This document shows positions 1,818 to 57,453 of a DNA stretch of 64,000 nt, in pieces. Numbering within the stretch: the stretch's first letter is position 1; each line of letters begins with the position of its first letter. Made by a program: the position numbers and the translations under genes. This DNA comes from Octopus vulgaris (Eukaryota): positions 69,812,001-69,876,000 of the forward strand of contig OX597815.1 in NCBI GenBank assembly GCA_951406725.2. The letters run 5' to 3'. The notes beneath the pieces were generated by a model. It was not told where the DNA came from, did no database searches, and worked only from the letters and a program-made list of their open reading frames with translations.

Positions 1818-2519
1818 ACACAGATACATATTATATGCATATATACGTACATAGATGTGTGTGTGTGAGTGTGCATGTGTGTGTGTGTGCGTGTGTGCGT
1901 GCGTGCGCAATTGTAAGTATATGTATACATATGTATGTGTACATTTAATCTTGGTTATTTTAGGAATTTAATGATATCTTCCGTACTCACAAGATAAACT
2001 TGTTATTGTTCACTTCCATAAACGTTTAAGTATCCTCTTCCTTAAATTTGATACGAGTATTTATCTGCTATACTGACAAAATTACCTTGATACCCTCACA
2101 CACTGTATCATCAGATTTCATTCAGGTCACCGAAATACGTTGTTTGTATAAATATATATGTATACAGGGCCTCATCTAATAGTATATTTAATCTTTCTTT
2201 CAAAATATTCCGACGTTCGGAAAAATCTGAATTGTTTATGAAATTATTGTTTATGAAATTGTTAATAAAATTTAAATAAGTAATCAACAAATATAAAGCT
2301 GCTCGATGCTAATTACCTAATTTAACACTACTAATCTACATATGTCGTAGCATCCATCAGTTTCCATATAACCGTGCAGATCAATGTTAAGCTGAATCTT
2401 CATTCCTCTTGATAAGGTGTTTTAACACCGAAATATCGTAATATAAAGAAAAGGTGTAAAACGTTTTTGTTTTGCTTTTATTTTGCTTTTGTTCTCATTC
2501 TTTTATTTCCAGCTAACAT

Positions 2520-2890
2520 CCGAGCACCAGGAGTTGGTAGAGGACTGCCACAAGAATGAGTGGAGTGGAAGACAGTGTGTTTAGCAGTGAAGGTTAGCTG
2601 CCGAGGGTTTGCATGTCGTTCTCTGAGTAAGGTTTATGAAACTCTAAGCATTTCAGAATCTTGAAAATGAAGAGCCATCGAGAACAAGGTAGAGGTTGCT
2701 GTGAAAGCATTTAAATTATTCTAGCTGAAAAGAGGTGATTGGTGGAGTCAGTTGAATGCCGCTTGGGCACAAGTCAAGATCGACTTAATCAACCTAGGTC
2801 GGATCGCATAGTTGGAGGTGTATGTTGTCAGATCCGAAACATCCTGGGTGTTCAGTATACAACACTGACGATGGATTCAAGTGACGCGTC
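2520..2890 (+). mobile_element. HERO-clade (R2 group, RLE) non-LTR retrotransposon 3' fragment, degenerate, with 3'UTR
   Basis: Manual translation across stops and frameshifts gives HQELVEDCHKNEW...VKVSCRGFACRSLSKVYETLSI...RAIENKVEVAVKAFKLF*LKRGDW, matching the HERO C-terminal EVGCRGF...RAI...W pattern. Confidence 0.7.
2814..2877 (+). ncRNA. Non-circularly permuted hammerhead ribozyme candidate (intact core)
   Basis: GGTGT-A-TGTTGT / CA / GATCC-GAAACATC / linker / ACAACA-CTGACGA-T-GGATT. Stem I is 6 bp, stems II and III 5 bp each, cleavage triplet GUA. Confidence 0.75.
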
Positions 2891-2994
2891 CTTAGGCGTT
2901 TGTTGAATTATCGGTTTTCTAGAACATTTTTAACTCTGTCAAAATGATTCATATTAACGACACTCCATATTATTTACACATGTGTGGTTGTGTG

Positions 2995-3047
<53 letters not shown>

Positions 3048-3103
3048 TGCATATATATAGATTACATTGCTAAGTAGTGAGATAGACATATAGACAGACA
3101 GAC

Positions 3104-3183
<80 letters not shown>

Positions 3184-3196
3184 GGATGGATGGATG

Positions 3197-3251
<55 letters not shown>

Positions 3252-3252
<1 letters not shown>

Positions 3253-5344
3253 TGTTTCTTTATTAGCCACATAGGGCTGCACACAGATAGAACAAATTAC
3301 AAGGCAGAGCTTTTCTTTTGAAGATTTAAAAAAAAAAAAAAAGAAGGGGGAGTTTCGATCAAAAGGGATCGTAAAAGGAGAGAAAGAGGACAAAAAAAGG
3401 GGGTTAAAAAAAAGGGGGAGAGGAAAAAAAAAAAATTGATCAATAGGGATCGTTATCACAGAAATGTCAATATGAAGTGTAAAGGGGAGGACAGGTGAGG
3501 TTTACCCGTGGAAAGAAAAGCCTACGGAAAAGACCACGGTAACCTCGGTCAATGGAGTCACATGTTATATTTCTTTTTTTTTTTTTTTTTTGCAAATAAG
3601 CAACTCTCTGTTTTCAATTTCTGGGTTCATAGGATCATGCTCAAGGTGGCTTCGTCATTCATACGTGCCATTCTTGCTACATTCACCCATCTTTTTTAAA
3701 ACATTCGCTAGACAAAACTTGCCTCTCTACTCTCACTTTCCTTTTCAAGTGGTACTTGAAGAAGTTGATGAGAGATTGACCAGAGAGGAAAGTGTTTGTC
3801 TCCAATCCTTTCAGACGCGTCCACCAGATACATTCTTTCGCCATAGCCACAAGGATGATGAAAATAGCTCTTCCTTCCCGTTTGAAGGAGGGAGGCGTGA
3901 CAATATTGACGATAGACTCAGCTGATAAACCGACACGTCCCACACGTGACAGCAGTTGTTCGACACAAGCCCACAGGTCGGAAATTGTTGGACACTGCAC
4001 GAGTGCGTGCAGAACGGTTTCGTCGCTCTGACCGCATCTCGGGCAGGTCGGCCCCGTGTTTCTCGAGCCGTGTCTGTAGAGCTTATCCCGAACGGGTAGC
4101 GCTTCTCGGTAGCACTGCCAGGCCAGGGATCTCTGGAAGTTGTCCATGGGCCCTGGCCCGAAAGTCGTCCTGAACAGGCGGGTCAGGTACTCCTCGTCGA
4201 CGTCCAGGTTCGCCCCGAGCTCGTCGTCGTACCTCCCCTCCACTAAACCCCTATAGAATGCTTTGGTTGTGTTGAAGTCACTCAAGGTCGACCCAGGACG
4301 GCAGAGTTGCTTGAGAGCAACGCGACACTCGCGGTGCCATTCGCCCTTCTTCGGCCTCTTTTTGATCCACGACTGCAGTTCGGTCATGGAGACGAGCTGC
4401 GGGAAAGCGTGCCTCACAAACGGCGACCACACCTGTTCACCGTCGTCTACATAGAGCCAGAGATGTCGCAGTCTCAGCGCGTGTCTGCGCATCATCAACC
4501 ACGGCATGCCCAGCCCTCCTTTTAACGGGTGTTGACAGCAAATGGATCGCCTGACCATCGGGACGCATCCTTTCCACAAGAAGCGAAAGAGAATGCGTTG
4601 TAGTTTGGTGATGGTAGGGTCGGGACAAGGTACGACGGTCAGGCGGTAGTAGATGACGGACGCGATGTACGTGTTCGCCACCTCCGCCCGACCTTTTAGG
4701 GACAGTTTCCTCTCGGCCCATTGCCGGGCGAGAGTGACCACCCTACTCGTTATCTCGTTCCAGTTCTTCTCCACTTGGAGGTCCGGACCAAACCAGACCC
4801 CGAGCAACTCAACCGGGCCGTCGGTCCAGCGTCCCACGACGGAGGCGCTGGTGGACGGCATGGGCTTGCTTCTCCAGGTGCCTAGTCGCAAGCCCACTGA
4901 CTTTTCCCGGTTGATTTTTGCTCCTGTCACCGCTTCGTAGTTTTTCAGTGTCTCGCCGACCTGCTCGATGTGCTCGTGGCTAGACACTATGACGGTGACG
5001 TCGTCCGCGTATGCAGACACGCTCGTCCCGCATCCCAGTTCTCGCGGGATGCCTCTCAAGGTTGCCAGCTTCCGCAATAATGGCTCGAGAGTCAATACGT
5101 ATAGAAGCGACGAGAGGGGGCATCCCTGACGGACCGAACGTGCGATGTCGAAGGGTCTCGATAGATGTCCATTATCGCGAATTACCGAACGGATGCCTCT
5201 GTACAAAGCGGCTATCCAGCCGCGGAAGACGGGACCGAAGCCAGCCGCTCCGAGGACCGCCTCCAAGTATCGATGGTCCACCCTATCGAAAGCTTTCGAT
5301 TGATCCAAATTGATCAGCGCCCCACCCATGCCAGGTTCGTTAAC

Positions 5345-19187: not shown

Positions 19188-19374
19188 ACAATATAATAAA
19201 TAAATAAAATATATGCATATATACATACATATATATACATGCATATATATATATGAGTACAGGACACCACAAATAAACGTAGAACACGAGAAACGAAAAC
19301 AAAATCAAACAAGGAAACGGACCTTTTTTAACAACGAAAAAACAGAGTACAGGACAAACAATACAAGGAAAATT

Positions 19375-19448
19375 CCCCTTCATCAGCTGCCCCTGGTTCG
19401 ACTCAATGCGTGTTTCGAAGGTAAGGGCAGAACACGGCCAGTCCGAAG
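19375..19448 (-). ncRNA. Non-circularly permuted hammerhead ribozyme candidate in a PLE-type non-coding repeat
   Basis: CGTGT-T-CTGCCCTT / A / CCTTC-GAAACACG / linker / AGGGGCAG-CTGATGA-A-GGGG; stem I 8 bp, stem III 5 bp. Confidence 0.72.
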
Positions 19449-20168
19449 CTATCCTTCCTGCAAAAGGAATTAAATAAAATTCTTTTGCAGAGGGGTAAAA
19501 CAAGTGACAAGAACAGGACGTAAAAGCAATACAAATGAAGAAAAAATAGTAGAAAAAACTACAAATAAAGAATAACAGGACAGGGAACCAACAATAAGGG
19601 CTTTTTTTTTAGACCTAGACGGTGGAAAAATTAGTTAGAACGCATGTGAAAAATCGGCTTGCGAAAGACAGGGAAGTCGATGTATGCTTGTTGAAAGCAC
19701 GGAGCTGAAAGAAAGTTTTTAGTAGCACTCCGGTCAACGGCCAGAGAGAGGAGGAGGAGGAGGAGAGAGAGAGGGGGGAAAGAAACCAGAAAGGGGGAAA
19801 AATAAGAAGGAGAGAGACAAGTAGAGAGGAAGACTGCCAGGCAGGGAGGAAAGGTCAAGTAAAGAGTAAGAGTGCGCGTCATGATTATTCAATATATATA
19901 TATATATGTATATGTGCATGTTGTATGAATATACTTTTCTCATTTATCAAAGATTTTCTTGGAAGGAAGCAATTAGTTTCTAATAAAGAAATCAAAGCTC
20001 CGTCGTTAATTGCTACATATTGAACTATGGAAAATCTTGCATATTTTAACTGTACCGCTTAGAGATTGTATTTTTAAAGAACAATGTTAGCCAGTCTTTT
20101 TGCCTAAAACCAGAACGTCACTTAAATGTTTACTAAAATAACTCACATTCACACCAAAAATAATCACT

Positions 20169-20570: not shown

Positions 20571-22915
20571 GTGTTTATAATCAAGATAGAGAAGCTGCAA
20601 GTTTCGAACTAGTTGTCCATAAATATTCTCCATTTTACTGATCTTCAGACAAACGTTCACATCTGCGGTTCAGCCAGCCTTTACGATTATATATGCTACT
20701 GATTTTTGTATGTCAAAGAATTAGACATGTTGCGCTTGCATTTGGTAGACATTTTGAGAGGCATGTTCCACCAATATTCCTTAAATTCATATGTACGTAT
20801 TCAATATGATATTTATATATATATTCCAAGGCATTCTTTTCTTCAGAGGTCACTACACACACACACACACACAGACACACACACACACACATACACATAC
20901 ACACGCAGACACATACAGGTACATACATAGACACACACCACACACGCACATACACACACACTCACTCACACACACGCATGTACATTGTGTGTGCTTACAA
21001 GTATGATGTATGTATACGAATGTATGTGATTCTGTAGTTATGGTTGCATAAATGGTTGTTTGTATGTGTGTGTGTATGTATGTATGAATATATGTATGCA
21101 TGTATATATGCATGTATGTATGTATGTATGCATGTATACATGCAAATGTGAATGTATGTGAAATTAAGTGTCATGACTTCTCGTGACATCAGACAGGCCT
21201 GTAACATCGTCTCTGCTTCTTCCTTTGTGGATGGAGCATATACTTCCCTTCAACTTTTGAGTAAGTTTATCATAATATAAAAGTGCTTTGGAACAGTATC
21301 TGCGTTGATTTTACCAGTGTCTTCTTGAACGTCTTTCAGAGAATCGTTAAAAACCCATCAAATACCTATTGCTGAGTTTAAACCCATTTCATCAATGGCT
21401 AACATTCACTCCTCCTATTTTTGTCAATGTAAATTAGTGCGTTGCCACTTCCTCATATAGATCTGCATTGTTGATTAAATCTCGTTAATTTACATCCATG
21501 TCCCAGCTGGGAAAGGAAAACTGGAATTATTCACTTTTTTTTTAAGTGTCTGCATCCTTTTGGGATTTTCTGCCAATGAGGATTTCCTTTAGCCCCAACG
21601 CAGTAAGGTTGACTCTTTTGCAAATTCATGGAAATCCTAAGGACTCGTTTTTATATTTTCTACAATCCCGATTTCCGTTTCCGTCCTTTTAGTTTCATCA
21701 GAGAGTCCAAGTTTTTTACGATCCCTAAAAATGTCCTTTTAAAGTAGGATTCCCCCCACCACCACCACCATCCACGCCTCATCGTCTTTACATAACCCAT
21801 TTCCTTGACCTGAACATTTTTATTCTTCTCACTAAGACTTTCCTGTTAAGGAATAATATCTTTTTGCGTACGTTGGCCTTTCTCTTCATGGATATGGCTG
21901 GCGTTATTGACTTATAAATTATTATACATATATGTGTATGGATGTGTGTATGTGTGTGAGTGTATATGTATGTATGGATATATAGCATGTATATATGTGT
22001 GCGCAAAAATATATATGTATATGCATGCGCACATTCGTTCATACATACATACTCACATATGTCCATACATACATACACATTCACATACACATATATATAT
22101 ATATATACATACACGAAGCCATGCGCCGTCCCATATATATATATATATATATACATAGACACACAGACACACAGACACACAGACATACATACATACATAC
22201 ATACATACATACATACATAAACAGTTGATAATCCTCCAAAATCAGAGCTTCGAGAAAGATGAATCCCAATGAAAATTCCAAAAATCGCTCATAATTTTAG
22301 CCCCCACACAATCTTTTCAAAATTAATCTTAAAATTATCTAGTTGGCTTTTTAAAATATTTGTGGGGAATATTTTCTGTGAGATTTATCTATATCTGTAC
22401 ACTTTATTAGTATATTTGTACCTACCTACCTATTTACCTACCTGCGTTTTGTGTCACGCTCCAAAGTAGGGAATGAAATATACATCATAAGACAACTGAC
22501 TTATAAAATATGGAACGAAGTCGAAGACACAATCTGTTAGGGATACAACATTTTTATAATCGATAAGAAATAAATATTTAAAATTATGTATGGATTCGCT
22601 GTTATCCTGCTGTTTCTAATACTTTAGGATATTCCTCCTGGTGTTAACCATGTTTTCGTCTTTTGTCTGGCCTAAGGCCATATTCTGTTTGCTTATTTCA
22701 TCTTGTTCCAATGTCCACACTTCGTCTTGTTTGTTTTCGTCTTTCTCCCTCGTCCGTCCACTAATGATCACAACTTGAATCACATTTATTTCATGTTTGT
22801 ATGTTCACTTTCTATATTGCATATTGGTTTATTTCTTGTTTGTTCACTTTCTGTCATGTTTGGTTCCTTGTTCGTTGGCTCGGCATTTCCGGACGGCTCC
22901 TTGCTGTCAGCACCA

Positions 22916-22990
22916 CCAGAAGAGGAACAATATTATCGTTGAAGTCTCGAAATTGCGTTTGATCATTTGGCCGATAACTGATGAGGATTT
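22916..22990 (+). ncRNA. Non-circularly permuted hammerhead ribozyme candidate
   Basis: CAAT-A-TTATCG / TTG / AAGTCTC-GAAATTG / linker / CGATAA-CTGATGA-GGATTT. Confidence 0.62.
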
Positions 22991-23084
22991 GGTGACCTTT
23001 TGTGTCTGTTTACTGTTTGTTTGTTCATTTATTATATGCTCTTTAACTGATTTGTCATAATAAATATATATATATATATATTAT

Positions 23085-23911: not shown

Positions 23912-24655
23912 CTCCTTCTTTCCTGAGCGTCCAAATACTATATTTGTTCCACGTCCTCGCATTCTTGTGTTTTTTTGTGCTTTCTTGTTTGGATTAACTT
24001 CATATATATATATGAGCACATATTCTTAAAAATTGGTACGACTCTCTGTTTGTCTCTCTCTCTCTCTCATTTTTACTTGATCTGTCCCCCTCTCTCTCTT
24101 TTCTCTCTACTCATCCTCTTTTTCTCTTCTCTTTCCTCTGATTCTTGGTCTAGTCTTCCACTACCCTCCTATTTCTTTGTCTCGCTCTGCACTCACAGGT
24201 CATTCTTCGACACCCATCCCTTCTCCTCTCTGACTCCTTCTTTCTCTCTCTTCTCTCTCTTGTTGCGTTTGTCCCTCCTCTCTCTCTCTCTTCCTTTGCT
24301 TCTCTTTCTTTTCTTTTCCCTCTTCTCTGTCACGTGACTGTTGGCCGAAATCTGCCTTTCAGCTCCTGACCCTCGTCGTGTTAACATCGCTGTTTTCGTC
24401 CGCCGCTATAAAGGCTTTTTCCAATGCGCCAGAGAAAAAATTTGTTTGCTTGTTATCAGTCGTAAGACACTGTTGTTTTCACCGTTAATGCTTCTGTATT
24501 TCATGTTTCTGTATTCCATTATTGTTTTTTGTTTTTTTATATCTGTCCCTTTTGCTGTCCTGGTGTTCGTATGCATTCGATCCTTCTTCCAGGAAATCTA
24601 CGCTTCCAGCTTAGTTTTTCTAATGCTCGTTGCTTAGTTTTTCTTGGAGGGCTGG

Positions 24656-24726
24656 CCGTGATCTAGTAATCTCAAGATTGATCAGCCGAAATTACTACGA
24701 TGATCCGGTTCTTGACTGAAGATTGA
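24656..24726 (+). ncRNA. Non-circularly permuted hammerhead ribozyme candidate
   Basis: TAGTAAT-C-TCAAGA / TTG / ATCAGCC-GAAATTACTA / linker / TCTTGA-CTGAAGA. Stem III 7 bp and stem I 6 bp are perfect; stem II is weak. Confidence 0.65.
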
Positions 24727-24835
24727 GGGTTTCGAATGTCCTGTCCGTGTTTATTGTATCGTCTTCTAAGAGTTATTACGTTCTTGTCCATGTTGTATTT
24801 TTCTACATACCTTTATATATATATATATATATATA

Positions 24836-26055: not shown

Positions 26056-29000
26056 TCATAGAATCATAGTCAAGGTGGCTTCGTCATTCATACGGGCCAT
26101 CCTTGCTACATTCACCCATCTTTTTTTAAAATATTCACTAGACAAAACTTGCCTCTCTACTCTCATTTTCCTCTTCAGGTGATACTTGAAGAAGTTGATG
26201 AGAGATTGACCAGAGAGGAAAGTGTTTGTCTCTAATCCTTTCAGGCGCGTCCACCAGATACATTCTTTCACCATAGCCACAAGTATGATAATAATAGCTC
26301 TTCCTTCCCGTTTGAAGGAAGGAGGCGTGTCGATATTAACGATAGACTCGGCTGATAAACCGACACGTCCCACACGTGACAGCAGTCGTTCGACATAAGT
26401 CCACAGGTCGGAAATTGCTGGACACTGCACGATTGCGTGCAGAGCGGTTTCGTCGCTCTGCCCGCATCTCGGGCAGGTCGGCCCCGTGTTTCTCGAGCCA
26501 TGCCTATAGAGCTTATCCCGAACGGGTAGCGCTTCTCGGTAGCACCGCCAGGCCAGGGATATCTGGATGTTATCCATAGGTCCCTGGCCGAAAGTCGTTT
26601 GAAACAGGCGGGTCAGGTATTCCTCGTCGACGCCCAGGTTTGCCCCAAGATCGTCGTCGTACCTCTCCTCCACTAATCCCCTATAGAATGCTTTGGTTGT
26701 GTTGAAGTCACTCAAGGTCGACCCAGGACGGCAGAGTTGCTTGAGAGCAACGCGACACTCGCGGTGCCATTCGCGCTTCCTAGCCTCTTTTTGATCCACG
26801 ACTGCAGTTCGGTCATGGAGACGAGCTGCGGGAAAGCGTGCCTCACAAACGGCGACCACACCTGTTCACCGTCGTCTACATAGAGCCGGAGATATCGCAG
26901 TCTCAGCGCGTGTCTGCGCATCATCAACCACGGCATGCCCAGCCCTCCTTTTAACGGATGTTGACAGCAAATGGATCGCCTGACCATCGGGACGCATCCT
27001 TTCCACAAGAAGCTGAAGAGAATGCGTTCTAGTTTGGTGATGGTAGGGTCGGGACAAGGTACGACGATCAGGCGGTAGTAGATGATGGACGCGATGTACG
27101 CGTTCGCCACCTCCGCCCGACCTTTTAGGGACAGTTTCCTCTCGGCCCATTGCAGGGCGAGAGTGACCACCCTACTCGTTATCTCATTCCAGTTCTCCAT
27201 TTGGAGGTCCGGACCGAACCAGACCCCGAGCAACTTAACCGGGCCGTCTGTCCAGCGTCCCACGACGGAGGTACTGGTGGACGGCATGGGTTTGCTCCTC
27301 CAGGTGCCGAGCCGCAAGCCCACTGACTTTTCCCGGTTGATTTTTGCTCCTGTCACCGCTTCGTAGTCTTTCAGTGTCTCGCCGATCCGCTCGATGTGCT
27401 CGTGGCTTGACACTATGACGGTGACGTCGTCCGCGTATGCAGACACGCTCGTCCCGCATCCCAATTCTCGCGGGATGCCCCTCAGAGTCGCCAGCTTCCG
27501 CAGTAGTGGCTCAAGAGTCAATACGTATAGAAGCGCCGAGAGGGGGCATCCCTGACGGACCGAACGTGCAATGTCGAAAGGTCTCGATAGATGTCCATTT
27601 ACGCGAATTACCGAACGGATGCCTATGTACAAGGCAGCTATCCAGCCGCGGAAGACGGGACCGAAACCAGCCGCTCTCAGGACTGCCTCCAAGTATCGAT
27701 GGTCTACGCTATCGAAGGCTTTCGATTGATCCAAGTTGATCAGGGCCCCACTCATGCCAGGTTCGTTAACTACCCTGTCTATGATGTAGCGCATCAGATG
27801 GAGGTTGTCATGGATGCTCCGGCCCGGCACGGGACACGTTTGTGCGTTGTCGACCAGTTTCTCGATGATAAGCGCCAACCTCTTGGCTAACACCTTTGTC
27901 AAAATGTTCAGGTCTGCATTGAGCAGAGTGATTGGTCTAAAGTTATCTATAATGTTCCCCTTGTTTGGATCTTTCTTCAGCAGAGTTACAGCTCCTCGAC
28001 TCACAAAACCGGGTATGCTCCCGTTTTACTGCCAGTTGCAGTATACCGCTACCAAGACGTCTCCGAACAAGTCTGGCATACAATTGTAAAACTCGTAGGG
28101 CAGACCATCCAAACCCGGCGATTTGTCTCTCGAGCATTCTGCCATCACGTCCCGCACATCCGCCGCCGTGATGGCACCTTCGCAGCACTCTGCCTCTCTT
28201 GCCGAGAGTCGTGGTAGGCTGTGCAGGTAGGCACTGAAGTCCACCCTGCGTTCACGCTCACCACTCGTCCCATACAGTCGGGCAAAGTGCCGCTGAAATG
28301 TCTCGCACATCTTGCTGGGCTCGAGCAATTCGCGCCCCTGTTCATCTACCAGAGACCGAATGGTGGCTTTGTTGCCCTGCTGCGCCTCCGCCACCCGGGC
28401 CTCCCTCGCGGCTCCAACACCTTCCATCCTTAGAGCACGCATCCTAGCCCTGACAGCACACCCTTCGTGTTTGGCGTTGAAGTGTTGTTCAAGGACCAAC
28501 CTCGCCGCTAAAACGTCGGATGTGATGCCACTTCTTATTGCCTCTTCTAGCTTCTTAACTAACTCACCCTCTACTCTATTTCTATCTACGGCTAGTGCCT
28601 TGCTATATCTAATTGCTTCCGCTTTTACTGCTCTCTAGAGGGCGAACCACCATTTGTTGTTGACAATGGCTCCCGTTAAAGCCCTTTTTACTAACGTGTT
28701 GATTCTGTCTCTAAAAACTTGTCTGGACGGGAATGATGCGTTCAGTTTCCAGTACCCAGGACCCTGTCTATGTGCCTTATCTAAGTCTAGCGTACACGTC
28801 ACGAATTTGTGATCCGTGTAGCTGACTGTGTGGAATTGTGGACATCCTAAGTTATCCTTATCTACTGTCCTACACAGTATCCTATCTAGATACGATCTCG
28901 ACGACCCACTGCAGTTGCTCCATGTCCACGTTGGTGCATTTGGGTGGTCGAGTCGGTACCTGTCAGACAGTTGGAATCGTCTGAGCAGGTCTCTGAGGCA

Positions 29001-55515: not shown

Positions 55516-55676
55516 CCGCCTCTCAACCAGATGGAAACCCCGGGACGATGGGATCCCGGGGCCGCAATGTATGTTCGAGGTGTCGATATTCAGTGAGTCC
55601 TGCAATTCGCATCAGTTCACGCGGTTAGCCGCGCTCTTCATCTACAGACGAGCCAAGTGATCCCCATCCAGGGTTT
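55516..55676 (-). pseudogene. 5.8S rRNA pseudogene
   Basis: Minus strand GGATCACTTGGCTCGT..GATGAAGAGCGCGGC..GAATTGCAGGAC..CGAACATACATTGCGGCCCCGGG with substitutions in conserved motifs. Confidence 0.92.
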
Positions 55677-56089
55677 CTATATTTACTACTACTACTGACG
55701 ATGACATACGGAAAGGGACGCGGCGCGTCGTCCGCGAAGGGAAAAAAAGCGAAACGAAACGAAAACCTAGCTGCGATAGCAGAAGAACAGCTCGCGACTG
55801 CTGCCACTAGTCGCGAAGGCCGGTGGATGCGGGAGAAGAAGAAAGGGAAACTGAGAAAAGATGAAATGCTCGTGGAGCCGCAAAGCGCGCTGTATCATCG
55901 GCCGAGCACACTGGTTGTCGGACGGGCGCCTGCTCGATGGGGCGTGCAGGATCGGCAGCGAGCAGGCGTGGCATCGGAGTGGACAGCTGCGCGGCGCTGC
56001 ACTGCACTGTTAGAGGGGCGAATGAGATGAAGGCGAGGGGACCCCGCCGCGGCTTATGAGAGCCATCAGAGAACACGTCGACAACGGCG

Positions 56090-57453
56090 CGGGACGCCGC
56101 CGCGCGCAAGCGGGCTCGTCGGCCAGATCCGAGGACCTCACCGGACCATCCGATCGGTAGTAGCGACGGGCGTTATGTACAAAGGGTAGGGACGTGATCG
56201 ACGCAATCTGATGACTCGCGCCTACCGGGAATTTCACGTTCATGGGGTTAGTTCCAGGCCCCGATCCCTATCACGGGAGGTGGTTCAGCGGTTTCCCGAC
56301 CCACTCGGCCGGGGTAAATGCGCCCGCTGATACCTCCAGTGTGACGCGCGTGTGGGCCCGAACATCTAAGAGCATCACAGACCTGCTATCTCTCCGCTTG
56401 GTGCGGCTTTCTGCCAGCCGTCTCTCTAAGAAGCGCTGCATTCTCCAACCGACCGGCACGGACGCGACGGCGTACCGCTGCTGGGCTCGCGCGAGCCGAG
56501 CCGAGCCGAGCCGACCGGATACCGACTCTGCAACGACGTCGCGATAGCCCCGGGAGGGGCGGCAGCCGGACGCGGCCGCAGCGCCCGACGTGATGGAAAG
56601 CGGTGGAAACGGCAAGCGCGGGACGTGCACGGATCTACCGACGACGGTTTCGGCGCCGCTGCGCTGCCAGAAAAGCACTAATCGGCACGCTAGTTAGTGG
56701 GCCAGAGTCACGTTGTTATCGGATCAACCAGACGTATCGCCAACTAAGAACGGCCATGCACCACCACCCACCGAATCGAGAAAGAGCTATCGATCTGTCT
56801 ATCCTACCGTTGTCCGGACTGGGTGAGTTTTTCCGTGTTGAGTCAAATTAAGCCGCAGGCTCCACTCCTGGTGATGCCCTTCCGTCAGTTCCTTTCAGTT
56901 TCTGTTTTGCAACCATACTCTTCCCCCGGAACTGACTATGGTTTCCTGCGCAAGCTCCCCGCCGGGTCATCGAAGCGAACGCCAGCGGAGCGACAGTTAT
57001 CCAGAGTCACCAAAATCGAAGAGCGTGAAACTGCCGCACGCCTCGACCCGCGCGCGGGGTGCGGCGGCTGCTGCGACAGCCCGTACGCGTCGGTCTTATT
57101 CCAATATTTACGCCGCGACCAGTGCGGAAGGCCAACCGCGTCGTCATGACCGGGGGCGAGCGCAGGTGCGCCGCCCTGGTCCGGTTGAGCGGGCGGGAGG
57201 GCTCTGGCGGCGAGCTGAGGCGAACGCTGATTTTCGGCCCGACGACCGAGTGTGGCCTGCACCGCAGCTTCAGTTGCATGTATTAACTCTAGAATTTCCA
57301 CAGTTATCCACTCTCCTTGTGGTGAGGAATACGGTCCCGAGGATTAGGTCCGGTTCCTGAACCATTCGCGGTTTCACCATTCGTTTACGGTATGAACTTG
57401 CATGGTTTAAGTTTTGAGACAAGCATATGACTACTGGCAGGATCAGCCAGGTA
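56090..57453 (-). pseudogene. 18S rRNA pseudogene with a large internal deletion and no 3' terminus
   Basis: Starts TACCTGGCTGATCCTGCCAGTAGTCATATGCTTGTCTCAAA; has GGAGTGGAGCCTGCGGCTTAATTTGACTCAACACGG and TTTGTACA..CGCCCGTCGCTACTACCGAT; GC-rich V2 and V7 expansions. Confidence 0.95.

Follow-up and report, generated by a model that had tools for sequence, protein, structure and literature searches.

A four-strand permuted hammerhead fold in the 3' tail of an RLE-type, likely HERO, LINE of Octopus vulgaris, and a proposed circular-RNA reading of related copies

The window analysed here (64,000 nucleotides of Octopus vulgaris DNA) contains a degraded 3' piece of a LINE of the RLE type, likely HERO, and its tail carries a full four-strand hammerhead core. 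This RNA is predicted to cleave and re-join itself, by which longer-than-unit transcripts would become unit-length circles that are likely copied for more than one lap. The probability of this reading is put at about 0.62. A preliminary description of the DNA had already placed a permuted hammerhead core in the 3' UTR of a HERO-type LINE. That assignment stands, with the carrier RLE-type and presumably HERO-like by name, and the core was found to be a non-circular permutation, conserved in the family of the window copy (family A) and far beyond it.

In the fold, which is established by covariation, the strands follow the order X-S-G-C (Table 1). Stem II is supplied by the upstream strand X, and the chain after A9 leaves in a helix termed P0. 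P0 and a hairpin, P1, make a four-way junction at the A9/G10.1 step, a further helix, Pa, clamps stems I and II, and in most lineages a kink-turn links Pa to stem III. The core itself (C3-U4-G5-A6-N7-G8-A9, G12-A13-A14, A15.1-U16.1, H17) is complete in the window copy. All letters named in the preliminary description are present at their positions, and the hammerhead lies on the sense strand about 70 nt past the ORF end, as it had said: the distance from the family stop codon (2752-2754; TAG in most sister copies, TTG in the window copy) to A2822 is 68 nt. The adjacent ORF was rightly called broken, its remnant carrying stops and frameshifts. The claim that all helices and core bases are intact is correct for the core and stems I and III, but not for stem II as it was drawn (2873-2877 with 2831-2835); the X strand lies outside the coordinates given there. 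The copy as a whole can be called intact only in part. Its core and stems I, II (with X) and III are preserved, but the kink-turn and Pa are lost, P0 has two mismatches, and identity with the family A majority is 75%. The window copy is a dead, 5'-truncated first-lap fragment of about 400 nt.

Table 1. Features discussed in the text, numbered from the first letter of the window
Feature	Position	Strand	Evidence
HERO-like LINE (family A) ORF 3' remnant with C-terminal restriction-like endonuclease; stops and frameshifts, 5'-truncated	2511-2754 (5' boundary approximate)	+	tblastn of 2522-2802 to intact relatives; sister frames
P0 5' strand, partner of the strand after A9; 9/11 pairs remain	2761-2771	+	Pairing; P0-like helix also in minimum-energy fold
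P1 hairpin region of the four-way junction, decayed in window copy	2772-2800	+	
X strand, detached 5' strand of stem II (GGATC; G10.1 at 2801)	2801-2805	+	Five Watson-Crick pairs with 2831-2835 (GATCC)
Pa 5' strand and kink-turn GA (family feature), mutated in window copy	2806-2816	+	
Block S: stem III strand GGTGT 2817-2821 (U16.1 = 2821), predicted cleavage nucleotide A17 = 2822 (GUA = 2820-2822), stem I strand TGTTGT 2823-2828	2817-2828	+	
Block G (GATCC-GAAA-CATC): stem II 3' strand 2831-2835 (C11.1 = 2835), G12-A15.1 2836-2839, stem III strand 2840-2843	2831-2843	+	
Kink-turn bulge strand and Pa 3' strand (family feature), mutated in window copy	2845-2858	+	
Block C: stem I strand ACAACA 2859-2864, core C3-A9 (CUGACGA) 2865-2871	2859-2871	+	
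P0 3' strand, including GGATT, the stem II strand of the preliminary description	2872-2882	+	
Element 3' tail to end of homology with sister copies, without poly(A)	2883-2910	+	
Same fold, GUU site at 19431, another non-coding repeat	19370-19460	-	
Third, weaker S-G-C match, site at 22932, T-rich repeat	22900-22995	+	
X-S-G-C hammerhead fold, AUC site at 24671, young non-coding 870-nt repeat	24650-24735	+	
Degenerate 18S and 5.8S rRNA gene pieces	55517-57453	-	Rfam

A looser S-G-C descriptor gave five matches in the window versus four in 100 shuffled windows (both strands). They comprise the studied copy, matches in three further repeat families and a weak look-alike at 1756, and none of the others belongs to family A. 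When the window was scanned with Rfam, no hammerhead match reached the gathering score and only rRNA pieces were reported; a scan of 20 related loci returned no ribozyme family.

The carrier was identified through its relatives. A DNA search of the genome (2.8 Gb, 227 contigs, microsatellite-rich) gave 41 matches, and the 30 that were fetched are about 70% identical to the window copy; in the frames of these family A copies an RLE domain can be read. Two families were added by searching the genome at the protein level: the sister family B and the young family C, which is about 30% identical and has open frames of 1109-1175 aa (1110 aa in the own-genome loci L061-L063, L069 and L311-L322). No match was returned by a protein search with the decayed window ORF fragment itself; this fragment matches the C-terminal domain of intact relatives. 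The protein of the 1109-aa family C frame contains an N-terminal zinc-finger-like motif, RVT_1, a CCHC-type knuckle and a PD...E endonuclease motif. Its best structure matches are R2 proteins, and its named relatives come from fish, amphioxus and lamprey. R2-group (RLE) elements are defined by a single ORF with the RT followed by a PD-(D/E)xK endonuclease (PMC3636483). By its motifs, family C has this layout. From the C-terminal motifs, alongside the fish and amphioxus relatives, the carrier is tentatively named HERO, and the LINE in the window is likely an RLE-type element of this kind. HERO insertions are described as dispersed or microsatellite-biased and outside rDNA (PMC4640811). The copies found here show the same trait, lying on many contigs and in many cases flanked by AT-rich or microsatellite DNA.

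Relatives were also found outside the genome: a metagenome scan gave 152, of which the best 80 were examined, a genome collection added three, and a viral collection one weak locus. One metagenome locus, L076, is very near the family B locus L034 (tree branches of 0.035 and 0.10), and this closeness may reflect horizontal transfer. Two loci on contigs of bacterial MAGs in the genome collection (L156 and L154) carry an endonuclease remnant together with the full fold, and L156 is in addition low in GC and holds another LINE RT piece; both look like animal DNA in bacterial bins. Another LINE with an RT lies in the window as two fragments, at 3683-5340 (-) and about 26970-28230 (-), the first with a zinc-knuckle C-terminus and an L1/Tx1 look.

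The preliminary description had proposed a three-strand fold of A-C-B order, in effect a type-SGC hammerhead, in which GGATT after CUGACGA serves as stem II and the cut could set the template 3' end. Five pairs are possible for this stem in the window copy and four or more in 5 of 29 sequence clusters, and 54% of its cells are paired in a 28-row MAFFT alignment, a level reached by 3 of 500 shuffles. At the family level this model is already contradicted, and we regard it as very improbable. The pair 2874:2834 forms in 2 of 23 family A sister copies, position 2874 is T in 18 of 24, and GGATT arises by two substitutions relative to the family majority. In family C, both the strand after CUGAUGA and the strand before GAAA read CCCC, so this stem cannot form there, and no pair is possible in many others either. 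The strand lies in P0 instead. Judged from these alignments, the stem II of the preliminary description is private to the window copy. Type-SGC hammerheads have the stem II strand 1-2 nt after CUGANGA, with block C uninterrupted; most of the clusters depart from this, and the window copy conforms through private changes only.

In all three families, A, B and C, the partner of the strand before GAAA is a strand upstream of block S. Once the position of Pa had been fixed, the 3' strand of stem II (IIb) was paired over at least 4 bp with the strand 3-8 nt 5' of Pa in 26 of 29 clusters, with the strand after A9 in 5, and with a control position in 7. When X and IIb were taken from mismatched clusters, pairing was found in 12.6% of combinations. 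X is 74% paired in the plain 28-row MAFFT alignment, in which the X column is shifted in part of the rows. The other stems of the 24 family A sister copies are 89% (stem I) and 78% (stem III) paired, and the whole core is kept in only 5 of 25 old family A copies. Two further candidates were rejected. A second cleavage block at the family A 3' end (GCS fold) was seen in the family A alignment and is absent from families B and C. A hairpin between the strands before and after CUGANGA is possible in A and B, but in family A it sets A against A at a position that is a compensated pair in stem I, and P0 and stem I account for both strands across the families. It was discarded as a conserved fold.

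A descriptor of stems I and III plus the core was run on 87 tails (83 fetched and 4 from the octopus genome itself; 10 under 200 nt), and it parsed 50 of them versus none of 15,400 shuffles. These 50 fall into 29 clusters at 80% identity; the families are kin, so cluster and locus counts are not independent events. The alignment was also run as a profile on the fetched loci only. With stem II (X) included and 800 nt allowed, 52 of the best 80 of the 152 metagenome loci were recovered against 1 of 2130 shuffles. Among the 28 misses, 8 have less than 150 nt downstream, and many others show core point changes or deletions by eye. The block order is S-G-C in all parsed loci. Pa has 5 or more bp in 27 of 29 clusters, matching the helix that clamps stems I and II in type SGC. 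P0, formed by the strand after A9, has 6 or more bp in 24. The four-way junction of P0, the P1 hairpin and stem II was called by script in 20 of 29 clusters, with the window row resting on another register. In the kink-turn consensus, a 3-nt bulge precedes tandem G.A and A.G pairs, with a helix on either side. This pattern occurs between Pa and stem III in 18 of 29 clusters; family C is without it, and its P0 has only 4 bp. In the 28-row alignment, pairing reaches 98.6% in stem I, where each of the five pairs is double-changed, and 100% in stem III (three pairs tested). The pseudoknotted core was not seen in nested minimum-energy folds, which cannot represent the two pseudoknots.

CUGANGA and GAAA were demanded by the parser, and therefore it is the unforced positions that matter for judging catalysis. 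Position 17 of a hammerhead is never G under the NUH rule. In the 52 parsed loci (from the best 80 of 152) it is C in 22, U in 18, A in 12 and G in none, and in the 29 clusters U in 11, A in 10, C in 8 and G in none. All four bases occur at N7, 26 of 29 clusters retain C11.1, and pair 15.2-16.2 is C-G in 28 of 29. The tertiary pair C3-G8 can form in all 28 rows, with U-A and U-G included: L090 and L091, of one family with an open frame of more than 1000 aa, have U3-A8, and L098 and L102, of another family, have U3 with G8. U at position 17 slows hammerhead cleavage, so the frequent U17 (18/52) would suggest slow cutting. U3-A8 is a natural covariation that is active in vitro (Perreault et al. 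2011, PMC3088659). On its letters, the fold belongs to the hammerhead class, having the core, stems I-III with covariation and the C3-G8 tertiary pair, and it is predicted to self-cleave after position 17. In Logan contigs of presumed RNA runs, the depth profiles follow a DNA-like run and some contigs span the site, which is uninformative on cleavage. One metagenome locus, L079, begins 1 nt past the predicted 3' product start; as one contig end among 80 it was not counted.

The same positions bear on whether the structure still cuts. It could be a non-catalytic docking site for the element RT, hammerhead-derived or hammerhead-like. Several features are as expected of such a structure: kink-turns typically bind proteins, P0 engages the strand after A9 in 24 of 29 clusters and so precludes a three-strand hammerhead, many sites have U17, and the genomic copies contain no trace of cleavage. 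However, X supplies stem II in 26 of 29 clusters, position 17 is never G (0/52), N7 is unconstrained, G10.1-C11.1 is retained, and C3-G8 shows covariation to U3-A8. Active-site rules of this kind have no obvious reason to be kept in a docking fold and count against it. The same fold also occurs in the non-coding 870-nt tandem repeat of the window, where retrozyme-like cutting is expected. We therefore consider loss of catalysis quite improbable and keep the self-cleaving hammerhead as the preferred reading.

The copies of family C suggest how the element may be propagated. Its unit is 3737 nt, with the predicted cleavage site at u3615. For the 5' region, 74 candidates were found, 40 scored and 30 fetched; 25 of these reach u1-2 and five are truncated at u32-56. 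In 24 of the 25 full-5' copies, the head is preceded by 27 to about 1977 nt of the copy's own tail side; in the remaining one, 9 nt of the junction are left. The tail-to-head junction is fixed apart from point changes in copies that are 83-100% identical to the query. The site is read through a second time in 18 of the 24 second laps (17 of 23 events, as two loci form a segmental duplicate), and six second laps exceed 381 nt. In at least eight loci, a 3.69-3.74 kb unit is enclosed by two complete ribozyme regions. Derivatives of 0.56-1.43 kb with internal deletions retain the junction and the tandem form; the deleted form in L061 (join 2132 to 4616) is deep in contigs of two presumed-RNA runs of one study. 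Head-to-tail joints were also found in 3 of 24 N-terminal loci of family B or its relatives and in 13 of the best 80 of 152 metagenome loci, which come from collapsed short-read assemblies (nine with the next ORF downstream, one circular contig and three starting in their own tail). The head-to-tail evidence comes from family C, family B or its relatives, and metagenome loci; for family A, no 5' end was found. In many families (L075, L078, L083, L087, L091, L103, L116, L118, L122 and L249), a conserved series of short repeats (CCAGTGAC ... GGA(A/G)AGAC) lies at the unit 5' end, after the tail junction, and could be a protein-binding or promoter element.

The two laps of a locus resemble each other more than those of other loci. 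Of 23 tandem loci examined, 19 gave both laps. Variants common to both laps account for 523 four-sequence patterns (49 sites), versus 16 (10 sites) with the pattern of an inherited dimer, these pairwise counts not being independent. Among 103 locus pairs, 76 are closer within than between loci, 27 are equal and none is the reverse. In L319, the laps share 11 differences from the reference over 976 nt and differ from each other at two positions.

No copy boundary coincides with the cleavage site. None of the 24 family C second laps and none of 30 downstream-half copies (examined out of 1772 candidates) starts there. Of 30 upstream-half copies, 29 were parsed; none of these young copies ends at the site, and all 29 reach the tail end about 120 nt beyond, with an A-run of 6 or more after the element end in one. 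The idea that cleavage sets the template 3' end is not supported by these copies, which bear out the accompanying remark that the downstream half was retrotransposed together with the upstream half. No genomic copy begins or ends at the site, so a cut RNA leaves no direct trace. The earlier suggestion of religation is favoured by the copy structures, although a head-to-tail or circular template had not been foreseen.

Lacking both a free 5' end and poly(A), the element must have its RNA ends set elsewhere, for which the account given for Penelope (two cuts, ligation and more than one lap; PMC4209133) is the simplest. Competent loci are partial tandems in which a tail with a ribozyme is followed by a full unit with a second ribozyme. 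We infer that a transcript spanning both ribozymes would be cut at both sites. The unit-length RNA would then be ligated by the ribozyme or a host ligase, with four helices holding the ends together. Using AT-rich target DNA, the RT would prime at the tail end, some 120 nt beyond the site, and run round the circle. The insertions seen are 5'-truncated pieces like the window copy, or one unit with a variable second lap. A new donor would arise only if the second lap is long enough to take in the ribozyme.

An active four-strand hammerhead could also operate without a circle. The partial tandems would then come from a linear, mostly uncleaved pseudo-LTR transcript, or from an RT jump between identical RNAs (5' end to 3' end), and the ribozyme would only trim read-through or limit element RNA unless element protein binds. 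The lack of any copy boundary at the site suits this scheme. The 5' ends of first and second laps cluster near u3357-3370, about 250 nt upstream of the site, which may be a linear pseudo-LTR transcription start or an RT stop. RTs of the R2 type are able to jump between templates, and a jump onto the same transcript would likewise give identical laps. Against this, the 3' ends of insertions differ by several bases but the junction is fixed, which does not resemble a joint formed afresh at every insertion. A quarter of the second laps (6/24) extend beyond 381 nt, up to about 1977, and an inherited linear dimer predicts position-wise variants, whereas locus-wise patterns prevail (523 versus 16). 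A scheme without a circle is accordingly held to be unlikely, though the least so of the alternatives, and the circular template is preferred.

The fold resembles type-SGC hammerheads (HRIMA-1 and variants), for which Eckert et al. 2023 (PMC10085705) gave the S-G-C order scheme. Both share this order, a double pseudoknot, a short stem I-to-II linker and the full core, and the helix clamping stems I and II in that paper ('I' there) corresponds to Pa. In contrast, the chain of the HERO-tail fold is broken at A9/G10.1. That paper (PMC10085705) assumes block C to be uninterruptible, and known hammerheads tolerate one additional base at A9/G10.1 (PMC3705267, PMC4209133). A natural hammerhead with a chain break at this step was not found in the literature searched. 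The same holds for a four-strand hammerhead in HERO-type LINE tails, most subscription papers and Repbase Reports lying outside that search.

Penelope-like elements carry minimal hammerheads in pseudo-LTRs (Cervera and de la Pena 2014, PMC4209133; Craig et al. 2021, PMC8557442). Partial tandems, a ribozyme near the 3' end of each repeat and microsatellite-flanked insertions are common to both systems (PMC4209133, PMC8557442), as is the proposal of cleavage, circularisation and more-than-unit reverse transcription (PMC4209133). The carrier here differs in being a non-LTR element with an R2-like RT and a C-terminal restriction-like endonuclease rather than GIY-YIG, and its ribozyme is a complete monomeric permuted fold rather than a type I minimal dimer. 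R2 (reviewed in PMC6765202) shares the single-ORF RLE layout and a self-cleaving RNA (predicted here) that frees the template from a longer transcript. However, R2 has an HDV-like ribozyme at its 5' end and targets rDNA, whereas the hammerhead here lies in the 3' UTR of an element not targeted to rDNA. Unlike in R2, no copy here starts at the cut, and the head-to-tail junction belongs to the element. Non-LTR retrozymes likewise form tandem units, each with a hammerhead, that are thought to move via circular RNA, but their hammerheads are of type I or III and they lack an ORF (PMC7229834, bioRxiv 10.64898/2026.07.22.740005), whereas the HERO-like unit is 3.7 kb and coding.

Two non-coding repeats of the window carry the same fold. 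The 870-nt repeat, at window 24716, has the retrozyme layout. It has 1844 candidate copies, two or three tandem units in 12 of 20 fetched loci (not all distinct), a fixed 3' end 150 nt past the site and variable 5' ends, and by analogy it is retrozyme-like. The repeat at 19370-19460 has 3126 candidate copies and a spacing of about 806 nt in one tandem.

Taken over the whole clade, the proposal is that HERO-type LINEs are circular-RNA retrotransposons, and we hold this to be slightly better than an even chance. A seventh, four-strand hammerhead topology, with the SGC core opened at A9/G10.1 by a four-way junction and clamped through a kink-turn, would cut and close unit circles, and TPRT would start inside the circle and run for more than one lap. 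The same ribozyme would drive the young non-coding tandem repeats of the genome, and it may account for the 'HHR core' motifs of Naiad elements, hammerhead cores that Craig et al. 2021 (PMC8557442) leave unexplained.

If this is true, a hammerhead topology excluded by the six-permutation scheme, and missed here by the Rfam models, would be added to the class, and a non-circular hammerhead permutation would be present in animal genomes across a whole retrotransposon clade. An R2-group element would gain a Penelope-like circular template, and the long-standing but unproven model of 'cleave, circularise, copy more than a unit' could be put to the test in a compact system with one ORF. Priming that needs neither a free 3' end nor poly(A) would also bear on the use of R2-group enzymes as gene-insertion tools.
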